This document shows, piece after piece, positions 25,377-43,550 of a stretch of 43,550 bases of DNA. The position numbers were made by a program, and so were the translations under genes. Position 1 is the stretch's first letter. The number at the start of each line of letters is the position of its first letter. Source of the DNA: Candidatus Woesearchaeota archaeon (lineage in GTDB: Archaea > Nanobdellota > Nanobdellia > Pacearchaeales > GW2011-AR1); the NCBI GenBank assembly GCA_964465625.1, contig CAYXIC010000001.1, positions 1-43,550 of the forward strand. Direction: 5' to 3'. Below the pieces are notes generated by a model. It ran no database searches. It was given only the letters and a program-made list of their open reading frames with translations, and had not been told where the DNA came from.

Positions 25377-25378
25377 GA

Positions 25379-27133: not shown

Positions 27134-27153
27134 TCTGTTTTTTTATTAGTGTG

Positions 27154-28017: not shown

Positions 28018-28027
28018 GCTTCACAAA

Positions 28028-28035
28028 TTTTAAAA
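28028..28035 (+). promoter_or_regulatory. TATA box, leaderless-type spacing
   Basis: TCACAAATTTTAAAAGCC. The TTTTAAAA core ends 23 nt before ATG 28058. A near-identical element occurs at 38251-38267. Confidence 0.5.
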
Positions 28036-28057
28036 GCCGCGAATCACATTTCATTGA

Positions 28058-29065
28058 ATGAACCTGCTGATATTTTTGCCGTTGCTCGCCAGTTTTTTTA
28101 TTGTAATGGCGTTCATGCCATTATGGATAAAAAAAGCCAGAACGAGAAAATTTCTTTGGAACGACATGAACAAGTTTGGTAGCCCGAAAAATGTGGCTGC
28201 CTCCGGGGGCATTGTCGTTGTTTTGGCGTTTGTTTTAGGAGCTTTGACTTATGTAGGATTCAGGACATTTATAGCAAAGGCGTATGACGGGGAGAGTATC
28301 GGAATATTTGCGGCAGTCATAACCATACTTATTCTCGGGCTGGTGGGAATTATCGACGATTTGTGGGGCTGGAAGTCAAAGGGCATGGCAAAAAAATGGA
28401 AGCTTTTGCTGGCATTTTTCGCATCTATCCCGTTGATCGTCATAAATGCCGGCGTGTCCACGATGAACGTTCCGTTTCTTGGGTCTGTAAATTTCGGCTT
28501 GCTTTACCCCTTGCTATTGGTTCCCTTAGGAATCGTTGGCGCTGCAAACGCGTTTAATTTTTTGGCAGGGATGAACTCTCTTGAGGCCACCCAGGGAATA
28601 ATCATTTTGTCGTTCCTGTCCTTTGTTGCATATCTTACCGGATCGGCATGGCTTGCAGTTGTAGGGATGACCATGGTTTTTTCATTGCTTGGGTTTTACA
28701 TCTTCAACAGGTTTCCTGCAAGGGTTTTTCCAGGTGATTCCATGACGCTTAGTGTTGGTGCGCTGGCTGCGATAATGTCCATTCTGGGAAATTTCGAGAA
28801 GATTGCGGTTTTTGTGTTCATTCCCTATATCATTGAGACCGTATTGAAGGCAAGGGGAAAATTGGAGAAGCAGTCTTTCGGCAAGCCAAACAGGGACGGA
28901 AGCCTTGAGTTGCCGGAAGGAAAAGTCTACGGGCTTACGCATTTTGCGATTTACATCCTTAAAAAAATCAAGCCAAACCACAAGGCCTATGAAAAAGAGG
29001 CCGTATATTTGATAAACGCGTTCCAAGTGTTAATTGTCGTCGTTGCATTTTTGCTGTTTTTTTAA
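28058..29065 (+). CDS. GT4-family polyprenyl-phosphate GlcNAc-1-phosphate transferase (AglH/WecA/MraY-like)
   Basis: About 10 TM helices with IIDDLWGWKSKG and NAFNFLAGMNSLEA motifs, as in archaeal AglH-type transferases. Adjacent to aglB. Confidence 0.8.
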   Translation: MNLLIFLPLLASFFIVMAFMPLWIKKARTRKFLWNDMNKFGSPKNVAASGGIVVVLAFVLGALTYVGFRTFIAKAYDGESIGIFAAVITILILGLVGIIDDLWGWKSKGMAKKWKLLLAFFASIPLIVINAGVSTMNVPFLGSVNFGLLYPLLLVPLGIVGAANAFNFLAGMNSLEATQGIIILSFLSFVAYLTGSAWLAVVGMTMVFSLLGFYIFNRFPARVFPGDSMTLSVGALAAIMSILGNFEKIAVFVFIPYIIETVLKARGKLEKQSFGKPNRDGSLELPEGKVYGLTHFAIYILKKIKPNHKAYEKEAVYLINAFQVLIVVVAFLLFF

Positions 29066-29107
29066 GAGGATTGCCGTTTGTTTAAGGTATACAGCCTATA
29101 ACTAACT

Positions 29108-29116
29108 TTTTAAAGA
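29108..29116 (+). promoter_or_regulatory. TATA box, leaderless-type spacing
   Basis: TTTTTAAAG ends 20 nt before ATG 29136. Confidence 0.4.
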
Positions 29117-29135
29117 AAAATCTCCTAAAAAAAAG

Positions 29136-31853
29136 ATGCCTGAACAAAAAGAATCTTTTACTTTCAAAATTCCAGAAGGATGGGAAAAAAGCAAAAATTG
29201 GGTTTATATCTCCTTGGTTTTGCTGATAGTCATCATAATTCTTGGAGTTTACATAAGAACGGTCAACATACCCAACTTAAAGGACATAACTACGGGAGAT
29301 TACACTCTCGGTCCTGATCTTGACCCTTTTCTTTATCTGAGGCTTGCCGGATACATAATTGAAAACGGCTCGCTCCCGTTTCCGGATGAAGCGAGGTACC
29401 TTGGGCTGGGCTTCTTCTACAAAAACCTCATGTCCTTTTACGTGGCTTATTTTTACAAGTTTCTTTCCCTCTTTTCCGACAAAATCACTTTGGAATACGC
29501 CGCGATAATCTTTCCCGTTGCTGCCTTCGGATTGAGCATAATTGTCTTCTTCTTTTTTGTAAGGGAGGTTTTTCACGGGAGAAGCGAGTTCGAGAAAAAT
29601 TCAATTGCCGTTTTGTCCTCCCTGCTTTATTCCGTGGTGCCGCAAATGCAGCACAGGACTGCCGCAGGAATACCTGAGCTGGAAAGCGCGGGATTGGTTT
29701 TCTTTTGGCTCTCCTTTTTCCTTTTTTTGCGCGCATGGAACAGCGACGGCAAAAATTTCTTGGGCGTTAACAGAAGGTATTTTTTTGGTTTTTTGGCGGG
29801 CTTGTCTACCTCAATGATGGTTTACACATGGGGCGGATTCAGGTTTATTTTTCTGAGCATCGCGCTGGCTACAATGGTTGCGTTTTTTCTCGGAAAAGTC
29901 AAAAAAGAGGAGTCCATTGTCTACGGGTTGTGGTTTCTGCCGTCATACTTGACGCTTATCTCGTGGCAGGGCCTCTCGGCAACGGTTTTTGACATTACAA
30001 CCTCTGTCCCGGCATTTTTTGTGCTGGTCCTTGTGTTCGCAAACGTGCTTTTCGGGAAATTTCTTGGAATAAAGGCAAGAAGCATTATTAAAAGGGATTG
30101 GTTTTCCGACGAGATTTCGTGCTTTTTTGCAGTGGTTTTGCTTGGCTTTCTGGCGTTGCTATTAATCAAGCCGGGTTTTGCATTAGGGCTGTTCGGTGAC
30201 TTTTTGGGCCGCCTTATTCACCCGTATGGCAGTGGGAGGGTTGGCCTAACTGTTGCTGAAAACCTTGAACCTTATACATCTGACTTGATAAACAGCCAGT
30301 TTGGAAAGCCGTTTTTCTGGATGATGTTTTTTGGGGTAATAATGATTTTTTACGACACAATCAGGCATTTCAACAAAAAACATAAGGCAATCCTTTTATC
30401 TTCATTTTTATTGTTTATGACTGCATTTATCTTTTTTAGATACTCTCCAAACAGCCTTTTCAACGGCGTGAATTTTGCAAGCCAATTGTTTTATTTTGGG
30501 TCAATAGTCATATTCCTGCTTTCTGCAATGTATGTCTACATAAAAAATTCAAAAAATGACGAAAAATCTGGTGAATTGGCCAACATCAATTATAACTGTT
30601 TATTTTTATTATCCTTAACTTTCTTCATGATCCTGGCTTCAAAAGCCGCGATAAGATTGATTTTTATTTCAACCCCTGTCTTCACGGTTTCGGTTGCATT
30701 TTTGCCGGTGATTTTTATTTCATACTGGATAAAAACAAAGGATGACCTTTGGAAAGTTTTGCTTTTAATTTTCATACTTGTCAGCGCCTTCTTTTTTGTA
30801 AAGACATTTATAAGCTATGAAAAAACAACGCTTTACAGCACTTATGGAACAGTCCCTTCGCAGTATACAATACAATGGCAGAAGGCTATGTCCTGGGTTA
30901 GGGCAGAAACCCCTGAAAATTCGGTTTTTGTGCATTGGTGGGATTACGGATACTGGGTGCAAACAATTGGCCAAAGACCTACAGTCACGGACGGGGGGCA
31001 TTTAATAGGTTATTGGGACCACCTTACAGGGAGATACCTCCTTACAACGCCGTATCCCGAAACAGCACTAAGCATAATGAAAACATACGGCGTTTCCTAT
31101 CTATTGATTGATTCTACAGACCTTGGAAAATATCCTGCATACAGCACGATTGGCAGTGATGAAACCAACGGTGACAGGGCTTCACAAGTTATTCTGACAG
31201 TCGTAAATCCAAGTCAGACCCAGGAAACCCAAAACGAGACCATAAGGGTTTATCAGGGGTTAGGGCCTGTTGATGAAGACATTATTTACGGAGAAGAAAA
31301 TCAAAAGGTGTTTTTGCCAAAGGGCAAGGCAGTTTTTGCGGGAATGATAATAAAGAGCTCGTTAAATCAAGATGGAATTTCATTTCTCCAGCCGACGGGG
31401 ATTTTTGTATATAACAACAGGCAGGTGAACATACCTGTAAGATACCTTTACTACGGCGAACAGGTCAATGACTTTGGCGGCGGCCTTGATGCAATAATTC
31501 AAATAATCCCAAAGATGGACCAAAACAATCAGCAGATTAACTTGGACAATCTTGGCGCGGCAATTTACCTATCTCCAAAAGTTTCTAAAAGCCTTTTCGC
31601 CCAGATTTACCTGCTTGGCGATCCATTCAATAAATACCCTACGGTAAAACTGACCCATTCTGAAAATGATCCTTTAATTGAAAGTTTAAACTCACAAGGG
31701 GCAAACATCAGGGATTTTGTCTTCTTTAACGGATTCAGGGGACCTATAAAAATATGGAAAGTTGATTACCCCTCAAACATACTGGAAAGGGGAGAATTTC
31801 TGGAAACAGATGGCGGCTACGCAGAACTTGATGGTCTACAGTTTACAAGATAA
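29136..31853 (+). CDS. aglB: archaeal oligosaccharyltransferase AglB (STT3 family)
   Basis: 905 aa. A multi-TM N-terminal half precedes the soluble C-terminal domain. WWDYG catalytic motif at 30936-30950 (HWWDYGYW). Confidence 0.9.
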   Translation: MPEQKESFTFKIPEGWEKSKNWVYISLVLLIVIIILGVYIRTVNIPNLKDITTGDYTLGPDLDPFLYLRLAGYIIENGSLPFPDEARYLGLGFFYKNLMSFYVAYFYKFLSLFSDKITLEYAAIIFPVAAFGLSIIVFFFFVREVFHGRSEFEKNSIAVLSSLLYSVVPQMQHRTAAGIPELESAGLVFFWLSFFLFLRAWNSDGKNFLGVNRRYFFGFLAGLSTSMMVYTWGGFRFIFLSIALATMVAFFLGKVKKEESIVYGLWFLPSYLTLISWQGLSATVFDITTSVPAFFVLVLVFANVLFGKFLGIKARSIIKRDWFSDEISCFFAVVLLGFLALLLIKPGFALGLFGDFLGRLIHPYGSGRVGLTVAENLEPYTSDLINSQFGKPFFWMMFFGVIMIFYDTIRHFNKKHKAILLSSFLLFMTAFIFFRYSPNSLFNGVNFASQLFYFGSIVIFLLSAMYVYIKNSKNDEKSGELANINYNCLFLLSLTFFMILASKAAIRLIFISTPVFTVSVAFLPVIFISYWIKTKDDLWKVLLLIFILVSAFFFVKTFISYEKTTLYSTYGTVPSQYTIQWQKAMSWVRAETPENSVFVHWWDYGYWVQTIGQRPTVTDGGHLIGYWDHLTGRYLLTTPYPETALSIMKTYGVSYLLIDSTDLGKYPAYSTIGSDETNGDRASQVILTVVNPSQTQETQNETIRVYQGLGPVDEDIIYGEENQKVFLPKGKAVFAGMIIKSSLNQDGISFLQPTGIFVYNNRQVNIPVRYLYYGEQVNDFGGGLDAIIQIIPKMDQNNQQINLDNLGAAIYLSPKVSKSLFAQIYLLGDPFNKYPTVKLTHSENDPLIESLNSQGANIRDFVFFNGFRGPIKIWKVDYPSNILERGEFLETDGGYAELDGLQFTR

Positions 31854-31935
31854 TTTCATCTAATCAAAATTTACTGCAAATATCTTACAAATCTTAAATT
31901 ACGTTAAAAATAAACATAATCTGCAATTTCATAAT

Positions 31936-31943
31936 CTTTAAAA
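31936..31943 (+). promoter_or_regulatory. TATA box, leaderless-type spacing
   Basis: CTTTAAAA ends 23 nt before ATG 31966. This supports that start over the TTG at 31948. Confidence 0.4.
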
Positions 31944-31965
31944 CGCCTTGATTTTAGAATTATCA

Positions 31966-33078
31966 ATGGAAAAAAGCCATTCGGGCATTGTAATATCCAT
32001 CGGAACCAAGGCAGAGCTTATAAAATGCATGCCAATTATGCTTGAGCTGCAAAGGCAAAAAAAAGATTATTGGTTCTTGCACACCGGTCAGCACAGTCTC
32101 AAGGATGCTTGTGAAAAGTTTGGCATAAAAAAACCCAACTTCATTTTAAGCCGCGCCCCAAGGGAAAACAACACAAAATTCTGGTCAAAAATAAACAAAT
32201 CCTCGGTGATATGGATTTTCAGGACAGTCCGAGATATTAAAAAAGTCATTAATAAGATTTCCCCAAGATATGTTATATACCATGGGGACACAATGAGCAC
32301 ACTTGCAAGTGCTGTTGCAACCTCCAAGATAATGAACCCGGGGAAAAAATGGAAAAATGTGCATTTAGAGGCGGGACTTCGCTCGGGAAGTTGGTTTGAG
32401 CCTTTTCCAGAGGAGATCTCAAGGAAGGTTTCAGACATGTTTTCGGACATTTTGCTTGCTGTATCTGATTTAAGCGACAAGAATCTCCATAATTACAAAG
32501 GTAAAAAAGAGATAATAAAAATTGGAAATACAATTATTGATTCTGCTGGCTTAGCTTACAAGAAATCTAAAAAAATGCATAAAAAAGGGAGGAGCAATTA
32601 TGCCTTGATAAACATGCACAGGCACGAGAATCTAAGGTCAAAGAAGAGGATGAAGATAATTGTCAGGATATTAAGCCATATAAAAATAAATGTGATATGG
32701 CCTTTGCATGACAATACAAGGCATTATCTTGAAAAATATGGATTAATTGAAGAAATTGAAAAAATGAAAAATATAAAAATAACCCCCTTGTTTGATTACT
32801 TCAAGTTTGTTTCCCTTTTGGCAGATTGCAGATATCTTGTCTGCGATGGCGGGAGCATACAGGAAGAAAGCCTGATTTTCAAAAAACCATGTTTGATACT
32901 GAGAAAAAAAACAGAGAGGCAGGAGGGTTTAACTACGGGAATTAATTTTATGACCATGAACGTTAATAAGGGAAAAGAAATTGTGGAAAAAATGGAAGCG
33001 GGTATAAAGGTTAAAAGCTTCGCCAATCCCTACGGAAAAAATGGCCTAAGTAAAAAAATAATTGAAATTTTAACATGA
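31966..33078 (+). CDS. wecB: UDP-N-acetylglucosamine 2-epimerase-like (WecB family)
   Basis: GTKAELIKCMPIMLEL...LHTGQHS..., GT-B-like epimerase pattern. Confidence 0.75.
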   Translation: MEKSHSGIVISIGTKAELIKCMPIMLELQRQKKDYWFLHTGQHSLKDACEKFGIKKPNFILSRAPRENNTKFWSKINKSSVIWIFRTVRDIKKVINKISPRYVIYHGDTMSTLASAVATSKIMNPGKKWKNVHLEAGLRSGSWFEPFPEEISRKVSDMFSDILLAVSDLSDKNLHNYKGKKEIIKIGNTIIDSAGLAYKKSKKMHKKGRSNYALINMHRHENLRSKKRMKIIVRILSHIKINVIWPLHDNTRHYLEKYGLIEEIEKMKNIKITPLFDYFKFVSLLADCRYLVCDGGSIQEESLIFKKPCLILRKKTERQEGLTTGINFMTMNVNKGKEIVEKMEAGIKVKSFANPYGKNGLSKKIIEILT

Positions 33079-33632
33079 AAATCCTAGACATTGGATGTGG
33101 AAACGGCAAATTTAAGGCTGAAGATCCCTTGGATGTGGTGATAGGGCTTGATTCTGTAAAATTAAATGGTGTTGATGTCGTTCATGATTTGGAAAAAACA
33201 CCACTGCCTTTAAAAAATAATGAATTTGACATGGTAATTGCATATCACGTCCTTGAGCACATCCGCAACTTCGTGCCTTTAATGAAAGAAATATGGAGAA
33301 TAACAAAAGAAAACGGTGTTGTAAAGATAAAAACCCCTTTTTACTCCTCTTGGGGCCAATTTAACGACCCCACCCATGTAAGGTTCTTTACACCGTTTAC
33401 GTTCAGTTATTTTGAAGGTGAAAACATATACTCTCACGAAGTAAAAAAACCAGGCAAAAAAGTTAATTTCAGGGTCGATAAAGTTAAAATAAATTTTGGA
33501 ATAGGAAAGTCAAGCATAATGAACAAGATTTTCAATCCTTTGCTAAACCTGAACCACAGGTTTTACTGCAGGTTTTTCGCATGGATATTTCCCGCGGCAG
33601 AGATAGCATTTGAATTGAAGGTTTTAAAATGA
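33075..33632 (+). CDS. class I SAM-dependent methyltransferase
   Basis: KILDIGCGNG motif I and DMVIAYHVLEHI. ATGA overlaps with both neighbours. Confidence 0.75.
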   Translation: MKILDIGCGNGKFKAEDPLDVVIGLDSVKLNGVDVVHDLEKTPLPLKNNEFDMVIAYHVLEHIRNFVPLMKEIWRITKENGVVKIKTPFYSSWGQFNDPTHVRFFTPFTFSYFEGENIYSHEVKKPGKKVNFRVDKVKINFGIGKSSIMNKIFNPLLNLNHRFYCRFFAWIFPAAEIAFELKVLK

Positions 33633-34777
33633 GAAAGATAAAGGTTTACCTGCAATATCCATGGAAATTTCCAGACAGCCCATATTACAAATATCTTGTT
33701 GACAGCCCTCCGAAAGGAATTGAGTATGTTAATGTTGAAAAACAAAAAGGGGTCATTACAAATAAAAGGGTTTTGTGGCTGTCAAATTTTTTAAAAAAAA
33801 GCATCAGATTTTTCATAGAAAAGCTAAAATTGCCCGTTATAAATGCGCATTTAACAAAAAGCGAAAAAGATTTGGATTTGATTCACTGCGCACATTGCCT
33901 TAGCTTAAACAAAAACAGGCCGTGGGTGGCTGATTTTGAATCACTGTGGCAGCTTTACTTTGGCAAGAGAACAAAAATGGCAAAGGAAAGGATAAAAAAG
34001 ATTTTTAGCGATAAAAAATGCAAAAAAGTCATGGTTTGGACTGAAAGGATAAAAAGAGATTTCGAGGAAGAATTTCCAGATGTGAAAAATAAGATAGAGG
34101 TTGTTTATCCAGCCGTCCCATTACAAAAAATCAGAAAAACAGGGCATAAAGGAACCAATCTTTTATTCGTTGGAAGATCATTTTATGAGAAGGGGGGTTT
34201 GGACGCATTAAAGGCTATTGACTATTTAACAAAAAACCACAAAAATGTCGAAGCAACCATAGTGTCAAAAACACCTAAAGAAGTAATAAAAAAATACTCT
34301 GAAAACAAAAAAATAAAATTTTTTGATTTGGTAGAAAAAGAAAAGCTGATAGGAATATATTCACAAACGGACATTTTTGTGTATCCAGGATATACGGACA
34401 CTTTTGGCTTTGGGATACTTGAATGTATGTCCTTCGGGATACCGTCAATAAGTGTGAGTGGTTTTATTGGCAGGGATTCGAAAAAAGAGTTGATCAATAA
34501 CGGGGCAAACGGTTTTTTAATAAGCACCCCAAAAAATTTTAATCTAGGAAAACTTAAATTTTCATTTGGCCAGTTGGTTTTGCTGTCAGAGGCGGAAACC
34601 AGAGAAAATCCTAAGATAATAAAAGAGTTAATTAAGAAAGCTTCGGCGATGATAGAAAATAAAAAAATTAGAGACAAAATGTCAAAAAATTGCATAGAAA
34701 CAATCAAAAACGGCAGGTTTTCCATAATGGAAAGAAATAAAAAATTAAAGAGGATATACGGAGAGGCTTTAAAATGA
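33629..34777 (+). CDS. GT-B glycosyltransferase (GT4-like)
   Basis: NLLFVGRSFYEKGG...DIFVYPGYTDTFGFGILECMSFGIPSIS...NGANGFLI has the typical GT4 C-terminal domain with E-x7-E-like region. Confidence 0.75.
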   Translation: MRKIKVYLQYPWKFPDSPYYKYLVDSPPKGIEYVNVEKQKGVITNKRVLWLSNFLKKSIRFFIEKLKLPVINAHLTKSEKDLDLIHCAHCLSLNKNRPWVADFESLWQLYFGKRTKMAKERIKKIFSDKKCKKVMVWTERIKRDFEEEFPDVKNKIEVVYPAVPLQKIRKTGHKGTNLLFVGRSFYEKGGLDALKAIDYLTKNHKNVEATIVSKTPKEVIKKYSENKKIKFFDLVEKEKLIGIYSQTDIFVYPGYTDTFGFGILECMSFGIPSISVSGFIGRDSKKELINNGANGFLISTPKNFNLGKLKFSFGQLVLLSEAETRENPKIIKELIKKASAMIENKKIRDKMSKNCIETIKNGRFSIMERNKKLKRIYGEALK

Positions 34778-36039
34778 ACAAGTCTTTTGAGATCAGTTTG
34801 TGCAGGTCATGCGGTTCTGAAAACTTAAGTCCAGTATTGTCTCTTGGAAAACAATACGTAACAAATTTCATAGAATTAAAGAGCGATCAAGAAGGTATAC
34901 CGAATGTTCCATTAGAAATTGTTCTTTGCGAAAATTGCAAGCTATTGCAGCTAAAGCACAATGCCCCTTCAGAGTCAATGTGGGGCGGCCAATACTGGTA
35001 CAAGTCAGGAATAAGCTCCACAATAAAAAACGACTTGAAAGACATTGTTGATAAAGTTAAATTTCTTGTTGACCTTAAAAAAGGGGATATTTTAGTTGAT
35101 ATAGGTTGCAATGACGGTACCCTTATGGATTTTTATGAAAAAGGCAAAGGTTTGAACGTAGTCGGGTTTGAACCTTCGAAAAATGTGGCTTTTGAGGCAA
35201 CGGTAAAGGGCCATAGGATTATCAATGATTTTTTCAACGCAGAGAAATTCAAGAAGGAATTTGGGGGTAAAAAAGCGAAAATCATCACTGCAATATCCAT
35301 GTTTTACGATCTTGAAAATCCAAATGAATTTATGGAGGACATTTTGGAATGCCTGGATGACCAAGGGTTGCTAGTAATTCAGCAAAACTATCTTTTGTCA
35401 ATGCTTGAGCAGAATGCTTTTGATAACATATGCCATGAACATAGGGAATATTACTCCTTGATATCCCTAAACAACCTACTGAAAAAATACGGGTTAGAAA
35501 TCTTTGATATTTGCGAAAGCGGTATCAACGGCGGAAGCATAAGGACATATATAAAAAAAATTGGCAATATAACATTGAAAGGCTTTCCAGGGGCAGAAGA
35601 CAGGATAAAAAAAGCCATGCAAAGAGAAAAAGAGATGGGGCTTGATTCATTAAAACCATATAAGGAATTTGCATCAAGAATTAACGGCATAAAGGAAAAA
35701 TTGGTGGGTTTTCTAAAACAAGAAAAGGCAAACGGAAAAAAGATATGGGTTTACGGGGCTTCAACAAGAGGGAATGTTATCCTGCAATATTTTAAGCTTG
35801 GGCCAGAGATAATTGACTGCATTGCCGACATGAACAAGGATAAGTGGGGAAAGAAAACAGTCGGCAGCTTTATCCCAATAGACTCTCCGGAAAATTTCAG
35901 AAAGGCAAATCCAGATTGCCTTCTTGTGAATACATGGCATTTCTTTGATGAAATAATGGGGCAGGAAAAGGATTATTTTGACAAAGGGGGAATATTCATA
36001 GTTGCCCTTCCGGAATTCAAGGTTATTGGTAAGGATTAA
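34774..36039 (+). CDS. NDP-hexose C-methyltransferase family protein (TylCIII-like)
   Basis: N-terminal CRSCGS...CENCKLLQL zinc ribbon, SAM motif ILVDIGCNDG, then a C-terminal Rossmann-like domain (KIWVYGASTRGN). This domain order is typical of sugar C-methyltransferases. Confidence 0.7.
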   Translation: MNKSFEISLCRSCGSENLSPVLSLGKQYVTNFIELKSDQEGIPNVPLEIVLCENCKLLQLKHNAPSESMWGGQYWYKSGISSTIKNDLKDIVDKVKFLVDLKKGDILVDIGCNDGTLMDFYEKGKGLNVVGFEPSKNVAFEATVKGHRIINDFFNAEKFKKEFGGKKAKIITAISMFYDLENPNEFMEDILECLDDQGLLVIQQNYLLSMLEQNAFDNICHEHREYYSLISLNNLLKKYGLEIFDICESGINGGSIRTYIKKIGNITLKGFPGAEDRIKKAMQREKEMGLDSLKPYKEFASRINGIKEKLVGFLKQEKANGKKIWVYGASTRGNVILQYFKLGPEIIDCIADMNKDKWGKKTVGSFIPIDSPENFRKANPDCLLVNTWHFFDEIMGQEKDYFDKGGIFIVALPEFKVIGKD

Positions 36040-37160
36040 TTCTTGTTATTTAAATAAAGGTATAATTTCTTATACTTTTTTGCCACCACAGACAGCCTAT
36101 TCTCCTTGAAATATCTACCGCATTCTTCAACAATTTTTTTGTAATTTTTTGGTTTCATTGACTGCTTTATAATTTTAGGATATTCGGAATCTTTTTCAGC
36201 TATTTTTACACATCCATAATCCTTTGAGATTTCATTAAAGAATTTTACATTACTTCCAATTACCGGTTTGTTTGCCGCCATCGAATGGGCAAATATTCCG
36301 CTTCCATGCCCAACCCTGTAAGGCAAAAGGACCAGGTCTGCGGCTGCAAAATATTTCCACCAAACAGGGTTTTTATCCGTTATTTTTTCGCTTACGTCAA
36401 AACGCACGAATTTTTCAAAATGATTTTCCTTGACAATTTTTTTATTATTTTCGAGATATGCCCTTGTCCTCTGGCTGTTTCTGTCATTTACCGAGCCAGG
36501 ATTTGCAACAACCAAAATCGTTTTCCCTATCTTGTCTGCCTGCCTTATGATTATATCGTGTCCGTGGTCTGGAATCATGCTTCCCATCAACAAATAAACA
36601 TTGCCTGAAAGCCTCAATTCTTTTCTTATTTTTTGTTTGCTATACTTTGGCAAACCTTCAAGGATTCCTTGCGGAAAAACAACTATTTTGCTTTTGTTTA
36701 CCCCATACTCCCTGGATAACGTTTCTTTTAAGAAATTTGTGTGCACCACAATCATATCTGAAAAAAGACCGATTATTCCGTTTTGTGCCATATATAGCAA
36801 TTTTCTGAAAAATGTCTTGGTTTTTTTCTCCCTGAATTTTTCTTTTAATGATAGTACGGTGTGCATTGTCACAACAAGCTTATTTTTCTTGAAAATTCCC
36901 AAGTATAAAAAAACCCAAAAAAAGGGCAGCCCGTATTTTCCAAGAAGATTATACTCGTGTTGGAGATGTATTAGATCGTATCTTGATAATTTTGAGAGAT
37001 TCTTAAATAATGTTAGTGGTTTTCCGGCAGAATAGTTAAAACCATTTATATCAACGCCTTGTTTTTTAATGATGTCCATTAAAGTGGAAGAATATCCTGA
37101 TATGGCCCTTTCAGATTCCCTTGTAGGAAAAACCATCGCCGCCCTAATTCTTTTCTTCAT
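36036..37160 (-). CDS. GT-B glycosyltransferase (GT4-like)
   Basis: Two-domain GT-B pattern (HLQHEYN..., VYLLMGSM...ADLVLLPYRVGHGSGIFAHSMAANKPVIGS). Overlaps the upstream SDR gene by 17 nt, so the two form an operon. Confidence 0.7.
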   Translation of the reverse strand: MKKRIRAAMVFPTRESERAISGYSSTLMDIIKKQGVDINGFNYSAGKPLTLFKNLSKLSRYDLIHLQHEYNLLGKYGLPFFWVFLYLGIFKKNKLVVTMHTVLSLKEKFREKKTKTFFRKLLYMAQNGIIGLFSDMIVVHTNFLKETLSREYGVNKSKIVVFPQGILEGLPKYSKQKIRKELRLSGNVYLLMGSMIPDHGHDIIIRQADKIGKTILVVANPGSVNDRNSQRTRAYLENNKKIVKENHFEKFVRFDVSEKITDKNPVWWKYFAAADLVLLPYRVGHGSGIFAHSMAANKPVIGSNVKFFNEISKDYGCVKIAEKDSEYPKIIKQSMKPKNYKKIVEECGRYFKENRLSVVAKKYKKLYLYLNNKN

Positions 37161-38190
37161 AAAAATCCAAAATTTCCTTTATTTTGCTAATAGTGTCTTT
37201 TGAAGATTCTTCCTTTAAGCCCTCGAACATTTTTTCCCTCCAGTATACTATCGCCTTCCTCAATCCGTCTTCGGGCGTAACTGTTTGCCTCCAACCAAGG
37301 ATTCTCTTTGCCTTTGAAGCATCCAAAGAAAGGTACGGCTGATCGGATGCAAGCGGCCTGTGAGGGTATTTTGGGGGATATTCCCCGAAATGCAATTTTC
37401 CCATTGGAAATTTGAGCTCTTCGGCTATTTTTGAGACCCACTCCCTATTTGTATATCCCCTACCTCCGGAAATGTTGAACACCTGACCTTTTGCCTCTGG
37501 AACAGACATCGCAAGAACGTATGCATTGACATGGTCATCAACATAGATGTAATCCCTTACTGAATTTGGCGCGCCTATGAATATGTCCTTTCCGCTTAGC
37601 ATTTCTGTGATGATATACTCTGTAAAAAAACTTTTGTCGTAATTTCTTCCGAAGGTGTTGGATGTCCTCATTATCACCACATTGAAATTGTACACTTTGT
37701 GGAGCATTCTTGCATACATGTCCATTGCAGCCTTGCTCACTGCATACGGGCTTGAAGGCTCCAGCCTTAAATCCTCTGTGAACGGCCTGTTATATTCCTG
37801 AATTCCGTAAACTTCGGCCGTTGAAGCCACTATAAGCCTGACTTTTTCAGGGCCGTAAAGCTCAAGCAGTGATTCTGCAATGTTCAAAGTTCCAATGTAA
37901 TTTACATCCTGAAAGCTAAATGGATTCTCAAAGCTTAGCCTTACAGGGGACAAGGCTGCAAGATGAAAGATCATTTCTGGTTGAGCCTTCTTTATTACCC
38001 TTCTAACGGAATGAAAATCCCTTATGTCGCAGGTTATGAGAGTTATTCTGTCTAAAATTCTCTCCAATGCGCTCAAATCACGGCCCACAACATGCTGAAC
38101 AATTCCGAAAACCTCATGTCCCTGCTCCAGAAGTCTGTGCGCGAGATTGGCGCCTATAAATCCTGTTATTCCCGTGATAAGGACTCTCAT
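37144..38190 (-). CDS. NAD(P)-dependent sugar epimerase/dehydratase/reductase (extended SDR)
   Basis: MRVLITGITGFIGANL (GxxGxxG) and catalytic YAVSK (YxxxK). Confidence 0.8.
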   Translation of the reverse strand: MRVLITGITGFIGANLAHRLLEQGHEVFGIVQHVVGRDLSALERILDRITLITCDIRDFHSVRRVIKKAQPEMIFHLAALSPVRLSFENPFSFQDVNYIGTLNIAESLLELYGPEKVRLIVASTAEVYGIQEYNRPFTEDLRLEPSSPYAVSKAAMDMYARMLHKVYNFNVVIMRTSNTFGRNYDKSFFTEYIITEMLSGKDIFIGAPNSVRDYIYVDDHVNAYVLAMSVPEAKGQVFNISGGRGYTNREWVSKIAEELKFPMGKLHFGEYPPKYPHRPLASDQPYLSLDASKAKRILGWRQTVTPEDGLRKAIVYWREKMFEGLKEESSKDTISKIKEILDFYEEKN

Positions 38191-38257
38191 GTTTTTTCTG
38201 ACACGGCATCATTTATTAAGATTATTGTAATGAGAGTACATAACTAAGTTTCACAAG

Positions 38258-38265
38258 TTTTAAAA
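38258..38265 (+). promoter_or_regulatory. TATA box, leaderless-type spacing
   Basis: TCACAAGTTTTAAAAGCA. The TTTTAAAA core ends 23 nt before ATG 38288. Confidence 0.5.
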
Positions 38266-38287
38266 GCATAGCTCTTAAGCCATCATT

Positions 38288-39025
38288 ATGGAAAATCAAT
38301 CAAAAGTAGAAACTTTCAAGACAATAATGAATCCTTTTTCAATCGAGTGCGTTGAGGAAGGGACTGATTTGGAAAGTCTAAGATATCTTGGAAGGGGTGA
38401 AAGAAGATACGGCATAGGTAGGCAACTGTTTGATAGGGGCTGCGATGACGCATTGGTTGGTTATGATGATGGGAACGGAAAGGGCATTCTTTTAATTAGA
38501 AGAAACGCAGAGCCTGCCAAAGGATACTTATGGCCTTTGGGGGGCTTTACAGATAGAGGAGTAAGAAAAAAAGACTCGCTTGCCTCTAGAATTGAGAATG
38601 AAAGCGGGTTAAAAATAGACAAAGAAACAATAATTAAAATTGGTGAGGGAAGAATGATTTGGAAAACCACTCCTTACCAACCAGTAAAAGTTACTCCAAA
38701 GATTCGAGATATGATATCTAATTCTGAAACCTCTAAAAAAAGTGTGCAAGAAGTATTAGCGTTACTTCAAAGCGAAGGGATTTATGGAGATGTTTCTAAA
38801 ATGGACATACAATCTTTTGCCGATTTGGTTCAAGAAAGAGATCTTCCATCCGGAATTGACGATTTTGGCAATTTATTTTATGCTGAAGCGACGGGAAATT
38901 TGAAACTGGATTTTTTACATAAGAATCCAGTGGTAGTCACCCCTAAAAAATATAACTATGAGTTCATGAGCACCCTTCATCCATATGTGAAATTAGGTAT
39001 GGATAGGGCTATAAAATTCTTATAG
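38288..39025 (+). CDS. Nudix-fold-like protein with degenerate Nudix box (hypothetical)
   Basis: GILLIRRNAEPAKGYLWPLGGFTDRGVRKKDSLASRIENESGL aligns to the Nudix strand plus box, but several catalytic Glu positions are substituted. Confidence 0.45.
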   Translation: MENQSKVETFKTIMNPFSIECVEEGTDLESLRYLGRGERRYGIGRQLFDRGCDDALVGYDDGNGKGILLIRRNAEPAKGYLWPLGGFTDRGVRKKDSLASRIENESGLKIDKETIIKIGEGRMIWKTTPYQPVKVTPKIRDMISNSETSKKSVQEVLALLQSEGIYGDVSKMDIQSFADLVQERDLPSGIDDFGNLFYAEATGNLKLDFLHKNPVVVTPKKYNYEFMSTLHPYVKLGMDRAIKFL

Positions 39026-39042
39026 ATTCAACTTCCATATTC

Positions 39043-39050
39043 TTTTTAAA
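39043..39050 (+). promoter_or_regulatory. TATA box, leaderless-type spacing
   Basis: TTTTTAAA ends 22 nt before ATG 39072. Confidence 0.4.
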
Positions 39051-39071
39051 TGGTTTTTTTCTAGACATTAA

Positions 39072-39785
39072 ATGGTTCTTAAAACTGCAATCATAATTGC
39101 GGGAGGCAAAGGTACGAGATTAGAGGAAAGGACAGAGGATCTTCCAAAGCCGTTGATTCCTGTCAACGAAAAACCAATTCTTGAGAGGATTATTGAATGG
39201 CTCGCAAAAAGCGGCGTTAAAAAGATAGTGATAGGGGTTGCCTACAAAAAAGATATGGTTAAGCATTATTTTGGCGACGGGAGCGATTTTGGTATTGAAA
39301 TAGTCTATACGGAGCACAATGAAAACGGCGGGACAGAAGACGCTTTCAAGGCGGCTATAGACCAATCAAAAATTTGTGATATCGAGGAAAATTTTTATGC
39401 CATGAACGGGGACCAAATAACAGATCTCTCACTGGACAATCTTGAAAAACATCATTTAAAAAATGATTCAATAGTAACGATAGCTACGATAAATTTAAGG
39501 ACTAATTTTGGCATTATTCGCATAGATGATGTTGGAAAAATCAGGGAATTCAGGGAGAAGGGGGAATTAAAAGATAAGAAAATGAATTCTGGCATTTATG
39601 TTTTCAACAAAAAAATAAGGGATGTGCTAAAAGGGGGAAATATTGAAGAAAATGCGTTCAAAAAGCTTGTTGGCATTGGAAAGATACATTCATTTCATCA
39701 TGAGGGCATATGGCTGACTGTCAATGATAAAAAAGAGCTCAAACATGCAGAAGAAACATTAAAAAGCATGGGGGATTCGCAATAA
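39072..39785 (+). CDS. sugar-1-phosphate nucleotidylyltransferase
   Basis: AIIIAGGKGTRLEERTEDLPKPLIPV is the signature G-x-G-T-R-L...K-P-L motif. Confidence 0.8.
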   Translation: MVLKTAIIIAGGKGTRLEERTEDLPKPLIPVNEKPILERIIEWLAKSGVKKIVIGVAYKKDMVKHYFGDGSDFGIEIVYTEHNENGGTEDAFKAAIDQSKICDIEENFYAMNGDQITDLSLDNLEKHHLKNDSIVTIATINLRTNFGIIRIDDVGKIREFREKGELKDKKMNSGIYVFNKKIRDVLKGGNIEENAFKKLVGIGKIHSFHHEGIWLTVNDKKELKHAEETLKSMGDSQ

Positions 39786-39792
39786 GAATAAG

Positions 39793-40236
39793 ATGAAGAT
39801 ACTGTTAGTTTACAGGACGGAAAAGGACAAGACCGGGAAAACTGTAAAAGAGATAAAGGAAAGACTGGAAAAGATTGGACAGAAGGTTGAACTACTTTCA
39901 AGAGAGGACGACCTTAACATGAATTCTCTTTCCAGTTCAATGGGAAGCCTTTCTGCAGCAATAGAAAAGAAAAACAAGGAAAATAATTATGATATAATCT
40001 ATACTCATGACTGGAGCATAGCCATGCCCTTATTGATTCCATCAAGGGTTTTATCTGAGAAACACTACTGTCTTTTTCATGATATTGAGCCTTCCGGGGC
40101 CAAATCCAGAATTTTGCAGAGAATTGTCGGGAATATGATGGGTGAAAAGCTGTTGGTAAAAACCAAAGAATTAAGTGACAAATTCCCTAAAGCCGTATTT
40201 TCTTCTGATGGGATAACTAAAGAAATATCAAAATGA
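39793..40236 (+). CDS. hypothetical protein, 147 aa (resembles an isolated GT-B N-terminal half)
   Basis: MKILLVYRTEKD...YDIIYTHDWSIAMPLL resembles the first Rossmann half of GT4 enzymes. No C-terminal catalytic half follows. Confidence 0.4.
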   Translation: MKILLVYRTEKDKTGKTVKEIKERLEKIGQKVELLSREDDLNMNSLSSSMGSLSAAIEKKNKENNYDIIYTHDWSIAMPLLIPSRVLSEKHYCLFHDIEPSGAKSRILQRIVGNMMGEKLLVKTKELSDKFPKAVFSSDGITKEISK

Positions 40237-40251
40237 ATTTTGATATCATTA

Positions 40252-40261
40252 ATTTTAAATA
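40252..40261 (+). promoter_or_regulatory. TATA box, leaderless-type spacing
   Basis: ATTTTAAATA ends 22 nt before ATG 40283. Confidence 0.4.
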
Positions 40262-40282
40262 TGATATTTCTAATCTTAAATC

Positions 40283-41278
40283 ATGAAAACGGCACTAATC
40301 GCGGGAATAACGGGGCAGGACGGCAGCTATCTTGCAGAATTCTTGCTGGAAAAGGGCTACAAAGTTTATGGGTTAATTAGGAGGACTTCTTGGCCAAATA
40401 CATTTAGGATAGAACATATCCTTGATAAAATTGAGTTAATTAAGGGAGATCTTCTTGATCAGCAATCCCTTAACAGGGCGGTTCTTTTCTCCAAGCCAGA
40501 TGAAGTGTACAATCTTGCCGCCCAATCTGTAGGTGGCGAAACTGCTTGGAAAATGCCTGAATTTACTGGAGAAGTTAATGGACTTGGGGCTCTGAGAATG
40601 CTTGAAGCTGTTAGAATAGGGTGTGAGGTTTTGGGAAAAAAGATAAGATATTATCAAACTTCCTCTGGATATTTATTTGAAAAGGCCTCCGAAAACCCTC
40701 AAAGTGAGAACACCCCTCTTAGGGCAACGTCAAACCCCTATACGATTGCGAAGCTCTATGCCCACTATGCAGGAATTGCGTACCGTAAAGATCATGGAAT
40801 GTTTGTTGTGAATGGAATAACTTTGAGTCATGAATCCCCAAGAAGGGGTTTTGAATTCGTTACCAGAAAAATAAGCAGAGAGGTTGCAAAAATCTCTCTG
40901 GGTTTGTCTAATGAACTTCTAATAGGAAACTTAGAAGGGCAAAGAGATTGGGGTTTTGCTGGAGATTATGTAGAAGCTATGTGGCTTTCATTACAAAAAG
41001 ATGTTCCTGATGATTATGTTTTAGCGTCGGGAAAATTGCACTCTGTAAGGGATTTTGTCGAGGAAGCATTTAATTTTGTTGGACTGGATTGGAAAAAATA
41101 TGTTAAACAGGACCCAAAATTCATACAAAGAAAATTGGACGAACCTTTATATGGTGATTCAACAAAAGCGCGCGAACAACTAGGATGGGAACCCAAAGTT
41201 AATTTTAAGGAACTTGTTCATATGATGGTTAAGCATGATCTGGAAGAGTTAAAAAGTAAGAATAAAAATGAGATATGA
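40283..41278 (+). CDS. gmd: GDP-mannose 4,6-dehydratase
   Basis: MKTALIAGITGQDGSYLAEFLLEKGYKVYGLIRRTS is the hallmark Gmd N-terminus. Also has YTIAK (YxxxK) and NGITLSHESPRRG. Confidence 0.85.
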   Translation: MKTALIAGITGQDGSYLAEFLLEKGYKVYGLIRRTSWPNTFRIEHILDKIELIKGDLLDQQSLNRAVLFSKPDEVYNLAAQSVGGETAWKMPEFTGEVNGLGALRMLEAVRIGCEVLGKKIRYYQTSSGYLFEKASENPQSENTPLRATSNPYTIAKLYAHYAGIAYRKDHGMFVVNGITLSHESPRRGFEFVTRKISREVAKISLGLSNELLIGNLEGQRDWGFAGDYVEAMWLSLQKDVPDDYVLASGKLHSVRDFVEEAFNFVGLDWKKYVKQDPKFIQRKLDEPLYGDSTKAREQLGWEPKVNFKELVHMMVKHDLEELKSKNKNEI

Positions 41279-41834
41279 ATTTCTTAGTTATCCAGATAAC
41301 TTTGAACATAATCCGATTTCAGATATTATTTTGAAATACGTCAAACACGGGCCTGTTCTTGATATAGGATGCGGAAACGGAAATCTGCTCATGCTTTTGA
41401 AAGACAGGTTTGATGTTGAGGGCTTTGACATATCAAAAGTTGCTGTGGATTTAGCAAAAAAAAGGGGGCTTAACGTAAAAGAGGCGGGCATAGAAAACTT
41501 CAAAACCAAGAAAAAATTTAAAACAATTCTTATGATAGGACTCCTTGTTCTTGCAAAAAGCCCCGAGGTGTATCTTCATATCGCAGAGAAGTGGCTTGAT
41601 GAAAAAGGAATAATCATGCTTACAATTCCAAACGGAAATGCGCTGAAAAATGCTTTTGGTCTGGCAAAAAAAAGAAATAAACATCATCTTTATTATCCAG
41701 GTTATTTTGAATTCAGGAAATTTTTAAGAAAAAACGGCTTTCAGGTTTTGGATCTTATTGGCACAGGGAAATTTTCTAAATTTCCTTTTTTGAGCTCTGT
41801 GATTTTTTATATAATAAAACCAGGAAATCGTTAA
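41268..41834 (+). CDS. class I SAM-dependent methyltransferase
   Basis: VLDIGCGNGNLL motif I. Overlaps the gmd 3' end by 11 nt. Confidence 0.7.
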   Translation: MRYEFLSYPDNFEHNPISDIILKYVKHGPVLDIGCGNGNLLMLLKDRFDVEGFDISKVAVDLAKKRGLNVKEAGIENFKTKKKFKTILMIGLLVLAKSPEVYLHIAEKWLDEKGIIMLTIPNGNALKNAFGLAKKRNKHHLYYPGYFEFRKFLRKNGFQVLDLIGTGKFSKFPFLSSVIFYIIKPGNR

Positions 41835-41878
41835 TTAGTAATTCATTTTCATAAAATATATAAATTAACATATACCAA

Positions 41879-41887
41879 CTTTAAAAA
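41879..41887 (+). promoter_or_regulatory. TATA box, leaderless-type spacing
   Basis: CTTTAAAAA ends 21 nt before ATG 41908. Confidence 0.4.
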
Positions 41888-41907
41888 CCCAGTAAATAAA
41901 TATTGAA

Positions 41908-43550
41908 ATGGAAGAAAAAATTATTAGGTGTGAAATATGCTCGAGCCAAAATATGTATGAGGTTCTAGATTTGGGACATCAACCACCAAGTGATGCCTTT
42001 TTGTCTGAAGCAAAATTAAACGAAGAAGAGATTTTCTATCCGTTGAAAGTGTTTTTTTGCGAAGATTGCAAACTTGTTCAGCTTAGTTATGCGGTAGATC
42101 CAAAAATTCTATTCACAGATCAATATGTTTATACTTCAAGTTCAAACAAAGGAATTTTATCCCACATGAGGACTCTAACGGAAAATATGATAAAAGAACT
42201 TAATCTTGATTCTAAGGACCTAGTTATTGACATTGCATCCAATGACGGTTCATTACTTCAAGAATTTGCAAAGTACAAAGTAAGAATCCTAGGCGTAGAT
42301 CCTGCAAGCGTGGCGGACATAGCAATAAAAAACAATATTCCGACAATCAAAGATTTTTTTAATGAAAACTTAGCAAAATTGATTTTACAGAAATACGGCA
42401 GGGCAAAATTAATAACGGGGCTTAACGTGATTCCACACGCGAAAGAATTGACATCTGTAATAAACGGAGTAAAATTGCTCCTTGATGATAAAGGTATTTT
42501 TCTGACAGAATCGCATTATCTAGCAGACATGATGGAAAAACTCCAATACGATGAAATTTACCATGAGCACTTGAGATATTTTTCAGTCACAGCACTTGTC
42601 AATATTTTTAATCGCTTTGGTATGGATGTATTTAATGTAGAACACATTCCAATGCATCCCGGAACCGGAGGAGAGATTCGCGTACTTGCGTGCAAAAAAG
42701 GTGATTATCCTATTTCAGATTCAGTAAGATTTTTTCTTGAAGAGGAAAGAAAATCTAATCTAAATTCGCACGAAAATTTTTATAATTTTAGAAAAAAGGT
42801 AAATGACAACAGAAAAAAATTAAACACAATAATTCACGAAATTAAATCTAAAGGTTGCAAAATAATTGGGATTGGTGCACCGGCCAAAGGCACCACTTTG
42901 TTAAATTTTTGCAAAATAGACTCAAGCAAGATTGATTATCTGGTCGAGGTAAATGAGTTGAAATTTGGCAAGTATTCTCCAGGTATGCACATTAAAATAT
43001 TCCCAGAGCCAAAACTTTTTGAAGAAAATCCAGAGTATGCATTATTATTGTCTTGGAACTTAAAAGATACCATAATACCAAAACTAAGGGAGAAAGGCTA
43101 CCGTGGGAAGATAATTATCCCAAATCCCAATCCAGAAATAGTTGAAGATATAGAAAAAATTTATAAATCCCCGTCTCAAGATAAAAAAATGGAAACAGAA
43201 AATAAAGATCTAAAAGTAAAAAAAATTACAGTAGTACATGAAGATGAAAGAAGAAAAATATTTGATGTTATTGATGGGGAGGAATTTGTGCATGTAGGAA
43301 GGATTATACATAAGCCAGGATCATGGGGCGGAGCCCATTATCATAAGCAAACAGAACAGATTAATTACATACTTAAAGGAAAGTTAAGGTATCTCACAAA
43401 AGATCTCTCCAAAAAAGGGAGCAAGGTAAAAGAAGTAATCTTGGAAGAGGGAGATATGTTGGTTGACCCTGTCCTTGAATGGCACGCCAGCGAAGCCCTT
43501 GAAGAAACTGATGCGCTGTTTTTCACAAAAAAGGCAAGAAAAGAAGGAGG
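41908..43550 (+). CDS. C-methyltransferase (TylCIII-like) fused in frame to a C-terminal cupin domain (3' partial, runs off the window)
   Basis: I translated the whole frame by hand and found no stop. Zinc ribbon CEICSS...CEDCKLVQL, SAM motif LVIDIASNDG, and a second Rossmann domain KIIGIGAPAKGT. After a short linker come cupin motifs GSWGGAHYHKQTE and GDMLVDPVLEWH. Absent from the ORF track because it lacks a stop. Confidence 0.75.
   Translation, partial: MEEKIIRCEICSSQNMYEVLDLGHQPPSDAFLSEAKLNEEEIFYPLKVFFCEDCKLVQLSYAVDPKILFTDQYVYTSSSNKGILSHMRTLTENMIKELNLDSKDLVIDIASNDGSLLQEFAKYKVRILGVDPASVADIAIKNNIPTIKDFFNENLAKLILQKYGRAKLITGLNVIPHAKELTSVINGVKLLLDDKGIFLTESHYLADMMEKLQYDEIYHEHLRYFSVTALVNIFNRFGMDVFNVEHIPMHPGTGGEIRVLACKKGDYPISDSVRFFLEEERKSNLNSHENFYNFRKKVNDNRKKLNTIIHEIKSKGCKIIGIGAPAKGTTLLNFCKIDSSKIDYLVEVNELKFGKYSPGMHIKIFPEPKLFEENPEYALLLSWNLKDTIIPKLREKGYRGKIIIPNPNPEIVEDIEKIYKSPSQDKKMETENKDLKVKKITVVHEDERRKIFDVIDGEEFVHVGRIIHKPGSWGGAHYHKQTEQINYILKGKLRYLTKDLSKKGSKVKEVILEEGDMLVDPVLEWHASEALEETDALFFTKKARKEG

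Follow-up and report, generated by a model that had tools for sequence, protein, structure and literature searches.

What kind of sugar would a small-genome archaeon build with two nucleoside diphosphate (NDP)-sugar C-methyltransferases (C-MTs) encoded downstream of its oligosaccharyltransferase gene, aglB? The question is raised by positions 28058-43550 of a contig (C1) of Candidatus Woesearchaeota archaeon, which at its full length of 43,550 nucleotides is the window analyzed here and which belongs to a 575 kb genome assembly of 70 contigs (G000; 83% complete). The nearest homologues of the window genes come from metagenome bins labelled Nanoarchaeota, Pacearchaeota or Nanoarchaeia, and the region is a glycosylation island linked to aglB in a DPANN archaeon with a small genome, of Nanoarchaeota/Pacearchaeota type. 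We found that the two C-MTs belong to separate gene modules. Taken as a whole, the island is best explained by two independent C-MT-centred modules, in which an extended short-chain dehydrogenase/reductase (SDR) with a T-A-E motif would be the dehydratase, a Gmd-like SDR would be a 4-ketoreductase and AglB would transfer the product as part of an N-glycan, a reading to which we assign a probability of roughly 55%.

The two C-methyltransferases and their modules

Gene families were assigned with Pfam and NCBIfam profiles, and the island was compared with 15 related loci. Related loci were retrieved via identical-protein look-ups (L001-L009) and by drawing on genomes that share its family or order (L010-L019). 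Four of the genes carry the argument:

34774..36039, plus strand: C-MT1, an NDP-sugar C-methyltransferase (PF08421, 52.4 bits; PF13489; PF08484, 152.8 bits)
41908..43550, plus strand: C-MT2::cupin, a C-methyltransferase fused to a cupin, its 3′ end cut by the contig end with ~15 codons missing (PF08421, 81.8 bits; PF08484, 145.9 bits; Cupin_2)
37144..38190, minus strand: the T-A-E SDR, an extended SDR with a T-A-E..Yx3K motif (best family deoxythymidine diphosphate (dTDP)-glucose 4,6-dehydratase, 185 bits, under the cut-off)
40283..41278, plus strand: the Gmd-like SDR, a Gmd-family protein without the catalytic Glu (PF16363, 344 bits; TIGR01472, 370 bits, under the 415 cut-off)

Both C-MTs give full-length alignments with MtmC, KijD1 and TcaB9 (E 2.5e-51 and 1.2e-73), which places them in the TylCIII/TcaB9/MtmC family and bears out their TylCIII-type assignment in a first-pass annotation of the same stretch. 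Against MtmC (4rv9), C-MT1 scores 177.9 bits over residues 7-416 and C-MT2 251.8 bits over residues 5-413. Each displays the three-part architecture of a Cys4 zinc ribbon (PF08421), a class I S-adenosylmethionine (SAM) domain and a PF08484 C-domain, and full-length orthologues of the C-MT2::cupin fusion are 538-565 residues long. The active site of TcaB9 reportedly comprises Tyr76, His181, Tyr222, Glu224 and His225, with roles said to have been worked out by Bruender and Holden in 2010/2012; we compared each C-MT at the equivalent positions with 120 homologues, MtmC and KijD1 serving as reference. The C-MT2 clade, C-MT2 included, has the canonical residue at every position examined: the four zinc Cys, both Tyr, the equivalents of His181 and Tyr222, and the Glu-His dyad. 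The C-MT1 clade keeps the Cys4 zinc site, the Tyr76 equivalent and the Glu-His dyad, with the zinc site and the dyad invariant; across this subfamily, Asp takes the place of His181 (120/120) and Cys mostly that of Tyr222 (105/120). In a phylogenetic tree, C-MT2 falls inside a large clade with MtmC and KijD1, and C-MT1 forms a separate deep, long-branch clade without a characterized member. A phylogeny had been suggested in the first-pass annotation as a check for a non-sugar clade: C-MT2 indeed groups with characterized sugar enzymes, and for C-MT1 it is the genomic context that argues for a sugar substrate.

The fusion of C-MTs to other predicted sugar-nucleotide enzymes is recurrent. In C-MT2-type metagenomic proteins (P0155, P0206 and P0240) the fusion partner is a cytidylyltransferase-like domain (PF01467) or a Gmd/epimerase-type SDR, and L008:1181-2788 encodes a 535-residue C-MT1-like protein with an additional C-terminal region.

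Around the two C-MTs, conserved gene neighborhoods define two modules, in which MT1 and MT2 are small methyltransferases and GT1 and GT4 denote groups of glycosyltransferases (GTs). Module A (31948-39785) has the order WecB-(MT1)-GT1-C-MT1-GT4-T-A-E SDR-(Nudix-like)-nucleotidyltransferase; it adjoins AglH and AglB in L001/L002, L003/L004 and L005 and is rearranged in L015. Module B begins at 39793, has the order (half-GT)-Gmd-like-MT2-C-MT2::cupin-aminotransferase-(small cupin) and is found in L001, L005 and L009. A looser version of module B, composed of separate genes for C-MT2, a cupin of 129-157 residues and a canonical Gmd or DegT aminotransferase, occurs in the distant genomes L012, L013 and L017. 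Module A stands without module B in L003/L004, L010 and L015, B-type sets stand without C-MT1 in L012, L013 and L017, and both are present in L001 and L005. A canonical Gmd is found beside each C-MT type in relatives (L010, L013 and L017). PF08484 was detected in 9/41 relatives searched, a patchy distribution that marks the modules as accessory. The single pathway with both C-MTs that had been proposed for the island thus gives way to two modules, since the two proteins are ~28% identical, represent two subfamilies and, in other genomes, are found one without the other. A doubly C-methylated sugar made by both C-MTs is likewise rejected, as the two types occur apart in related genomes, each with its own partners.

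The Gmd-like and T-A-E SDRs

The protein at 40283..41278 had been annotated as the Gmd that makes guanosine diphosphate (GDP)-4-keto-6-deoxymannose. It retains Ser128, Y153-x3-K157, the NADP motif GITGQDGSYL and SHESPRRG and scores 331 bits against Arabidopsis MUR1 (1n7g); in an alignment with solved Gmds and 116 homologues, it reads S-G-Y where Gmds have [ST]-S-E. The GMD fingerprint is [ST]SE..Yx3K, in which the Glu is the sole acid/base residue added to the SDR triad (PMC8987622, Table 1). This Glu is present in 106/117 aligned family members; in its place, the 10 homologues nearest to the window protein have Y, Q or A. The resulting Glu-less clade of 11 members, including the window protein, is monophyletic (support 1.0) on a long stem branch, and differs from the 106 canonical sequences at ~15 other near-invariant positions and by a four-residue insertion. 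Its members (P0242-P0251; e.g., L005:10001-10984, L006:922-1923 and L009:257-1243) share 64-90% identity, and all their frames are open; most lie on DPANN-like contigs, and one is labelled Patescibacteria. A search for an acidic residue that is kept throughout the clade and could compensate for the Glu was negative. In a library of 50%-identity representatives, searched with a profile of the clade, the clade is merged with canonical short Gmds at that level of clustering, and only a handful of isolated non-Glu sequences stood among the 150 top matches. The retained motifs and the good conservation of the clade point to a change of function rather than decay. With the catalytic Glu gone and the score below the curated cut-off, Gmd activity is not to be assumed from family membership, and the protein most likely no longer makes a 4-keto sugar, if its sequence is a guide. 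In our preferred reading it may be a 4-ketoreductase. Such an activity is known for the Gmd homologue Rmd and is shared by bifunctional Gmds (PMC3539893).

The T-A-E SDR is predicted to be the better candidate for the 4,6-dehydratase. The orthologues in L001, L003, L005 and L015 share its STAEVYG motif, and the protein, with the Glu present and the Asp absent, has the single-Glu arrangement of GMD on an RmlB-like scaffold. In the stretch fetched for L015 it is the only dehydratase-type candidate beside C-MT1, and the sole other candidate in L003 lies in a separate module. We compared the SDR pairs encoded near the C-MT1 module, within the stretch fetched for each of six related, non-independent loci. 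The T-A-E SDR is paired with an RmlD-like reductase in L003 and L015, with the Glu-less Gmd-like protein in the window and L005, and with a Gmd-like protein reading S-R-E in L001; L010, from the same genus, has a canonical Gmd together with an RmlD-like protein. The simplest reading of this pairing of a dehydratase candidate and a reductase candidate per locus is that the T-A-E SDR would make the 4-keto-6-deoxy sugar and the Gmd-like protein would serve as the 4-ketoreductase.

Extending this reading to the whole Glu-less clade, we tentatively propose, with the odds somewhat against it, that the clade represents a neofunctionalized GDP-sugar SDR, and that its DPANN carriers decorate their proteins with GDP-made C-methyl (quaternary-carbon) deoxy and amino-deoxy sugars. 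Its members would be either 4-ketoreductases for C-methylated GDP-4-keto sugars, recruited once the T-A-E SDR had made the dehydratase redundant, or dehydratases/oxidases that use a different acid/base residue.

Predicted sugar supply, tailoring and transfer

Between 28058 and the contig end there are 14 genes; all were listed in the first-pass annotation with families that agree with our Pfam and NCBIfam assignments, in a sequence that was an inventory and differs from the physical order. Apart from the four given above, they are:

28058..29065, plus strand: AglH-like N-acetylglucosamine (GlcNAc)-1-phosphate transferase of GT family 4 (PF00953, 111.5 bits)
29136..31853, plus strand: AglB/STT3 oligosaccharyltransferase, 905 residues (PF02516, 39.9 bits, cut-off 24.5, with weak core-domain matches)
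31948..33078, plus strand: WecB-type uridine diphosphate (UDP)-GlcNAc 2-epimerase (PF02350, 205 bits; TIGR00236, 191.5 bits, under the 210 cut-off)
33075..33632, plus strand: MT1, a small class I SAM methyltransferase of 185 residues whose gene overlaps both flanking genes (PF08241, PF13489)
33629..34777, plus strand: GT-B glycosyltransferase of the GT1 group (PF00534, 59 bits)
36036..37160, minus strand: GT-B glycosyltransferase of the GT4 group (PF13439, 40.6 bits)
38288..39025, plus strand: Nudix-like protein of 245 residues with a degenerate Nudix box (hhalign against the Nudix proteins of L006/L008, 95.8% probability, E 6.9e-9)
39072..39785, plus strand: sugar-1-phosphate nucleotidyltransferase (NTP_transferase; PF00483, 113 bits)
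39793..40236, plus strand: stand-alone N-terminal half of a GT-B enzyme, 147 residues (40% identity over 97% coverage to the N-half of a 316-residue GT in L006)
41268..41834, plus strand: MT2, a small class I SAM methyltransferase of 188 residues (PF13489, 55.6 bits)

The nucleotide of the predicted sugars can be approached through the nucleotidyltransferase, whose best NCBIfam scores (Arch_glmU N-domain 128, ManC 119 and HddC 118) are all below the cut-offs and whose nearest solved structures are mannose-1-phosphate guanylyltransferases and HddC. We lean towards GDP because of these structural neighbors, the HESPRRG motif kept in the Gmd scaffold and a Per-like aminotransferase (see below), and on sequence grounds a GDP-linked substrate is moderately supported. 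The nucleotidyltransferase is the single PF00483 match in the 83%-complete genome. The island requires UDP-GlcNAc and at least one other NDP-hexose, yet one nucleotidyltransferase and no mutase were found, which suggests a promiscuous nucleotidyltransferase, host-derived precursors or both; sugar phosphates may thus come from the host. The Nudix-like protein has no Pfam match, and its AlphaFold2 model is poor (predicted local distance difference test score (pLDDT) 38.6) and unusable.

Module B appears to continue beyond the contig end. By a tblastn search of the same genome we found a contig of 4133 bp and 36.4% GC (C40, identical to L007), which starts within a DegT aminotransferase gene that is 87% identical to the gene located shortly downstream of the fusion in L005. 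The fragment matches PF01041 with 307.7 bits, and its orthologue in L001 (73% identical) has GDP-perosamine synthase as its best match (324 bits against 3bn1); the aminotransferase falls under the LegC and PseC equivalog cut-offs. The C40 aminotransferase is thereby predicted to be GDP-perosamine-synthase-like, and with such a continuation module B would probably make a C-methyl amino-deoxy sugar. Of the 6-deoxyhexose product proposed in the first-pass annotation, the methyl branch stands as a reasonable prediction from the gene set, but the product of module B is more likely an amino sugar, given Per-like aminotransferases on C40 and in L001, L005 and L009.

Further along C40 are a B12-binding radical SAM protein of 720 residues, a frameshifted copy of the small cupin and a third methyltransferase. 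The radical SAM gene (C40 890-3052, with a CPFKCSFC motif) separates the aminotransferase gene from the cupin remnant and has no homologue in L001-L009 at E<1e-6, which marks it as a variable insert outside the conserved module; its product may be a further (radical) methylase. In L005, a different B12/radical-SAM gene lies between the nucleotidyltransferase and the Gmd-like gene. At C40 3042-3444, a homologue of the 136-residue stand-alone cupin of L001 and L009 is spread over three reading frames, as a pseudogene or through an assembly error.

The cupin fused to C-MT2 displays the metal-type motifs G-x5-H-x-H-x3-E and E-W-H. Its AlphaFold2 model (pLDDT 78.9) has the C-terminal cupin of Staphylococcus aureus CapF as its top fold match (template modelling (TM) score 0.68, E 7.5e-9), with FdtA/QdtA ketoisomerases and GDP-heptose epimerases lower among the matches, and PF14667 scores 27.8 bits, just under the 28.7 cut-off. 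We predict from this model that it is a CapF-type sugar cupin, acting as an epimerase or ketoisomerase on 4-hexuloses. An oxalate-decarboxylase-like cupin, the best match by sequence, was set aside because CapF ranks top in the fold search and both the fusion and the neighboring genes are sugar-specific.

The core of the island consists of the AglH-like initiating transferase, AglB, WecB and GTs. AglB features a multi-span N-terminal STT3 domain and a C-terminal domain with WWDYG at residue 601/905, and AglH-like orthologues adjoin aglB in L001, L003, L014 and L016. The WecB open reading frame as listed begins at TTG 31948; the spacing of a TATA-like box suits ATG 31966, 18 nucleotides downstream, better, and this ATG is probably the true start. 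MT1 is found at the equivalent position in L001 and L005, the GT1-group gene is syntenic in L001, L003 and L005, the GT4-group gene adjoins C-MT1 and the T-A-E SDR in every related locus with the set, and in L001 and L009, too, MT2 is flanked by the Gmd-like gene and C-MT2. The L001 orthologue of the half-GT shows a weak PF13439 match, and separate genes for a GT-B N-half (147-154 residues) and C-half (180-182 residues) stand side by side at L005:14416-15430 and L009:7171-8162. The half-GT of the window is probably one subunit of a split, two-subunit GT, whose C-half partner may lie beyond the contig end. Within the syntenic island of L005, positions 15541-20984 encode a GT9 (heptosyltransferase-like) enzyme, an HldE-like kinase/adenylyltransferase, a GmhA-like SIS isomerase and a sulfotransferase; this heptose module is absent from the window.

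In its genomic setting, the order prefoldin, IF-2B-family protein, SpoIIM-like membrane protein and AglH/AglB is kept in the window (25742-28017), L001 (1102-3257) and L003 (1545-3669), which places the island at a fixed chromosomal site just downstream of the SecY end of the ribosomal protein operon. The impression of an AT-richer island is borne out by counting: the part after AglB (31948-43550) has 36.4% GC, against 42.8% for the ribosomal protein operon (9000-25000) and 40.3% for the contig. TTTAAA-type boxes that end ~20-30 nucleotides 5′ of the ATGs starting the units agree with the suggested short leaderless transcription units, with which they are compatible short of proof. A scan of 25000-43550 with Rfam matched no family.

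What is observed directly comprises the genes present, the families they belong to, the state of their motifs, their synteny and their modularity; from these we infer the substrates, step order, nucleotide, methylation site and final acceptor in the following route. In module A, the nucleotidyltransferase would activate a hexose-1-phosphate, probably as a GDP-sugar, which the T-A-E SDR would oxidize and dehydrate to an NDP-4-keto-6-deoxyhexose. C-MT1 would then methylate the carbon beside the keto group (C3 or C5), and a 4-ketoreductase, a step that the Gmd-like protein could supply, would complete a 6-deoxy-C-methylhexose. In module B, C-MT2 with its CapF-type cupin would modify a 4-keto sugar, and the GDP-perosamine-synthase-like aminotransferase would aminate it to a C-methyl-branched amino-dideoxyhexose, to which the small methyltransferases (MT1/MT2) may add further methyl groups. 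The GTs would place these sugars on a lipid-linked glycan, which AglB would move to protein.

Competing explanations and known systems

Several points weigh against this route. The Asp of RmlB-type dehydratases is missing from the T-A-E SDR, which reaches none of the curated cut-offs and, among structures in the Protein Data Bank, stands about as far from dehydratases as from epimerases. The pairing scheme fits L001, L006 and L009 poorly: in the otherwise syntenic island of L001, the Gmd-like protein at the same position keeps the Glu (S-R-E), so the reductase reading leaves some loci unexplained, and in L006 and L009 the Glu-less protein adjoins an aminotransferase with no other dehydratase on those short contigs, a pattern that would fit a Glu-less protein still making the keto sugar. 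MtmC, the closest solved relative of the C-MTs, is also a 4-ketoreductase (PMC3539893), and, because it performs the ketoreduction itself, a separate reductase is possibly dispensable. C-MT1 deviates at 2/5 residues studied in TcaB9. On the supply side, the UDP/dTDP-type archaeal GlmU N-domain slightly outscores ManC as a match to the nucleotidyltransferase, and a search of the 83%-complete genome turned up no phosphohexomutase (phosphogluco/mannomutase). C1 and C40 are placed next to each other by synteny, across a gap that no reads bridge, and the N-glycan link consists of gene adjacency. Hence, of the GDP-sugar bound for an N-glycan in the first-pass annotation, both parts of which we infer, the nucleotide has moderate support and the destination draws on the linkage to aglB.

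Among the competing explanations, the foremost, though we hold it to be unlikely, is that 40283-41278 encodes a working Gmd after all, with one pool of GDP-4-keto-6-deoxymannose feeding the C-MTs and the T-A-E SDR acting as a 4-ketoreductase or epimerase. The arrangement in L006 and L009 speaks for it, as do the clear family membership of the protein, its retained Ser, Yx3K, NADP motif and HESPRRG, the purifying selection evident in the identities and open frames of its clade, and the presence of a canonical Gmd at the same place beside C-MT2 and the cupin in the distant L013 and L017. These points are countered by the clade-wide replacement of the sole extra acid/base residue by Tyr, Gln or Ala with no conserved acidic residue to compensate, the changes at ~15 near-invariant positions on a long stem, and a score below the curated Gmd cut-off. 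In another competing explanation, C-MT1 would not act as a C-methyltransferase but would, for example, perform ketoreduction only or methylate another atom, leaving module B alone to make a branched sugar. We consider this quite improbable: the subfamily-wide Asp (120/120) and Cys (105/120) in place of His181 and Tyr222, the deep clade without a characterized member and the fact that MtmC-type enzymes can be 4-ketoreductases (PMC3539893) have to be set against an intact zinc ribbon, SAM domain and PF08484 domain with an invariant Glu-His dyad. In addition, the constant partners of C-MT1, namely a dehydratase-type SDR or canonical Gmd, an RmlD-like reductase, a nucleotidyltransferase and GTs, suit a C-MT that acts on 4-keto sugars.

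A different objection concerns the destination rather than the chemistry. The sugars might be made as proposed and be attached to another surface glycoconjugate (glycolipid, O-glycan or lipid-linked polysaccharide), with the proximity of aglB reflecting a mere clustering of glycan genes, an account that ranks second among the competitors and that we likewise doubt. The window displays neither a flippase nor a direct functional link to AglB (L009 has a Wzx-like flippase farther away), AglH and AglB belong to the core in contrast to the patchily distributed tailoring modules, and the low GC suggests an exchangeable accessory region. However, the order AglH-AglB-WecB-(MT)-GT1-C-MT1-GT4 is conserved and tightly packed, with overlapping genes, in L001, L003 and L005, and archaea generally have their agl genes clustered around aglB. 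The agl clusters of Haloferax volcanii and Methanococcus spp. likewise combine an initiating GT, an AglB with WWDYG, GTs, sugar-tailoring genes and methyltransferases.

We know of no DPANN glycan that has been characterized, and the chemistry of C-methyl sugars is known mainly from bacterial antibiotics and a few lipopolysaccharides (LPS). DPANN cells live attached to hosts, for which reason surface glycans likely matter for contact. The claim that C-methyl sugars are undescribed in archaeal N-glycans agrees with a 2024 review that names many unusual sugars and no C-methyl-branched one (PMC11407970), and when full texts were searched for 3-C-methyl sugars of archaeal glycoproteins, the sole result was a general review of nuclear magnetic resonance. 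Within its families, the island is an interesting annotation of well-known proteins in a cassette common in related genomes, not a new kind of system; the new part, as read from sequence, is a putative archaeal GDP-type variant with a fused cupin and a diverged Gmd. It offers a compact enzyme set, with a probable GDP-sugar C-MT, a natural C-MT-cupin fusion and a Gmd homologue without the dehydration residue, which could widen the toolbox for branched sugars and shows a possible re-use of a dehydratase scaffold.

The actinomycete antibiotic C-MTs TylC3/EryBIII/MtmC (4rv9), TcaB9 (3ndi) and KijD1 (5t64) have the three-part architecture and Glu-His dyad in common with the window C-MTs. In contrast to them, the window genes belong to an archaeal glycosylation island, are probably directed at GDP- rather than dTDP-linked sugars and are not accompanied by 2-deoxygenation genes; further, C-MT2 is fused to a cupin, and C-MT1 forms its own clade with the Asp/Cys pair. 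In S. aureus CapF (Cap5F), an SDR reductase is fused to a C-terminal metal-binding cupin that epimerizes a UDP-4-hexulose. The window cupin resembles it as its best fold match, in the H-x-H...E...H metal-type motif and in being fused to a 4-keto-sugar enzyme, but the partner is a C-methyltransferase instead of a reductase, the identity is ~16% and an FdtA/QdtA-type ketoisomerase role is possible. The GDP-perosamine pathway comprises Gmd and Per/RfbE (e.g., Caulobacter crescentus Per, 3bn1/3dr4), often with a Nudix GDP-mannose hydrolase nearby. Module B shares with it a Gmd-family gene and a Per-like aminotransferase, and Nudix-like genes are found in the island or its relatives; it differs in the C-MT::cupin and small methyltransferase that stand between these genes and in the missing Glu of the Gmd-like protein.

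Closest in overall logic is the in silico GDP route to virenose (6-deoxy-3-C-methylgulose) of Coxiella burnetii LPS, which consists of ManC, Gmd, a TylCIII-like C-MT and an epimerase/reductase (PMC3539893). That route features a canonical Gmd (T/S-x-E), is without an aminotransferase, cupin fusion or second C-MT, and serves a bacterial LPS. Like the window, it brings together a guanylyltransferase-like enzyme, a Gmd-family SDR, a TylCIII-type C-MT and a reductase for a surface glycan, and this proposal (PMC3539893) provides a precedent for the combined action of Gmd and a TylCIII-type C-MT on a GDP-sugar.

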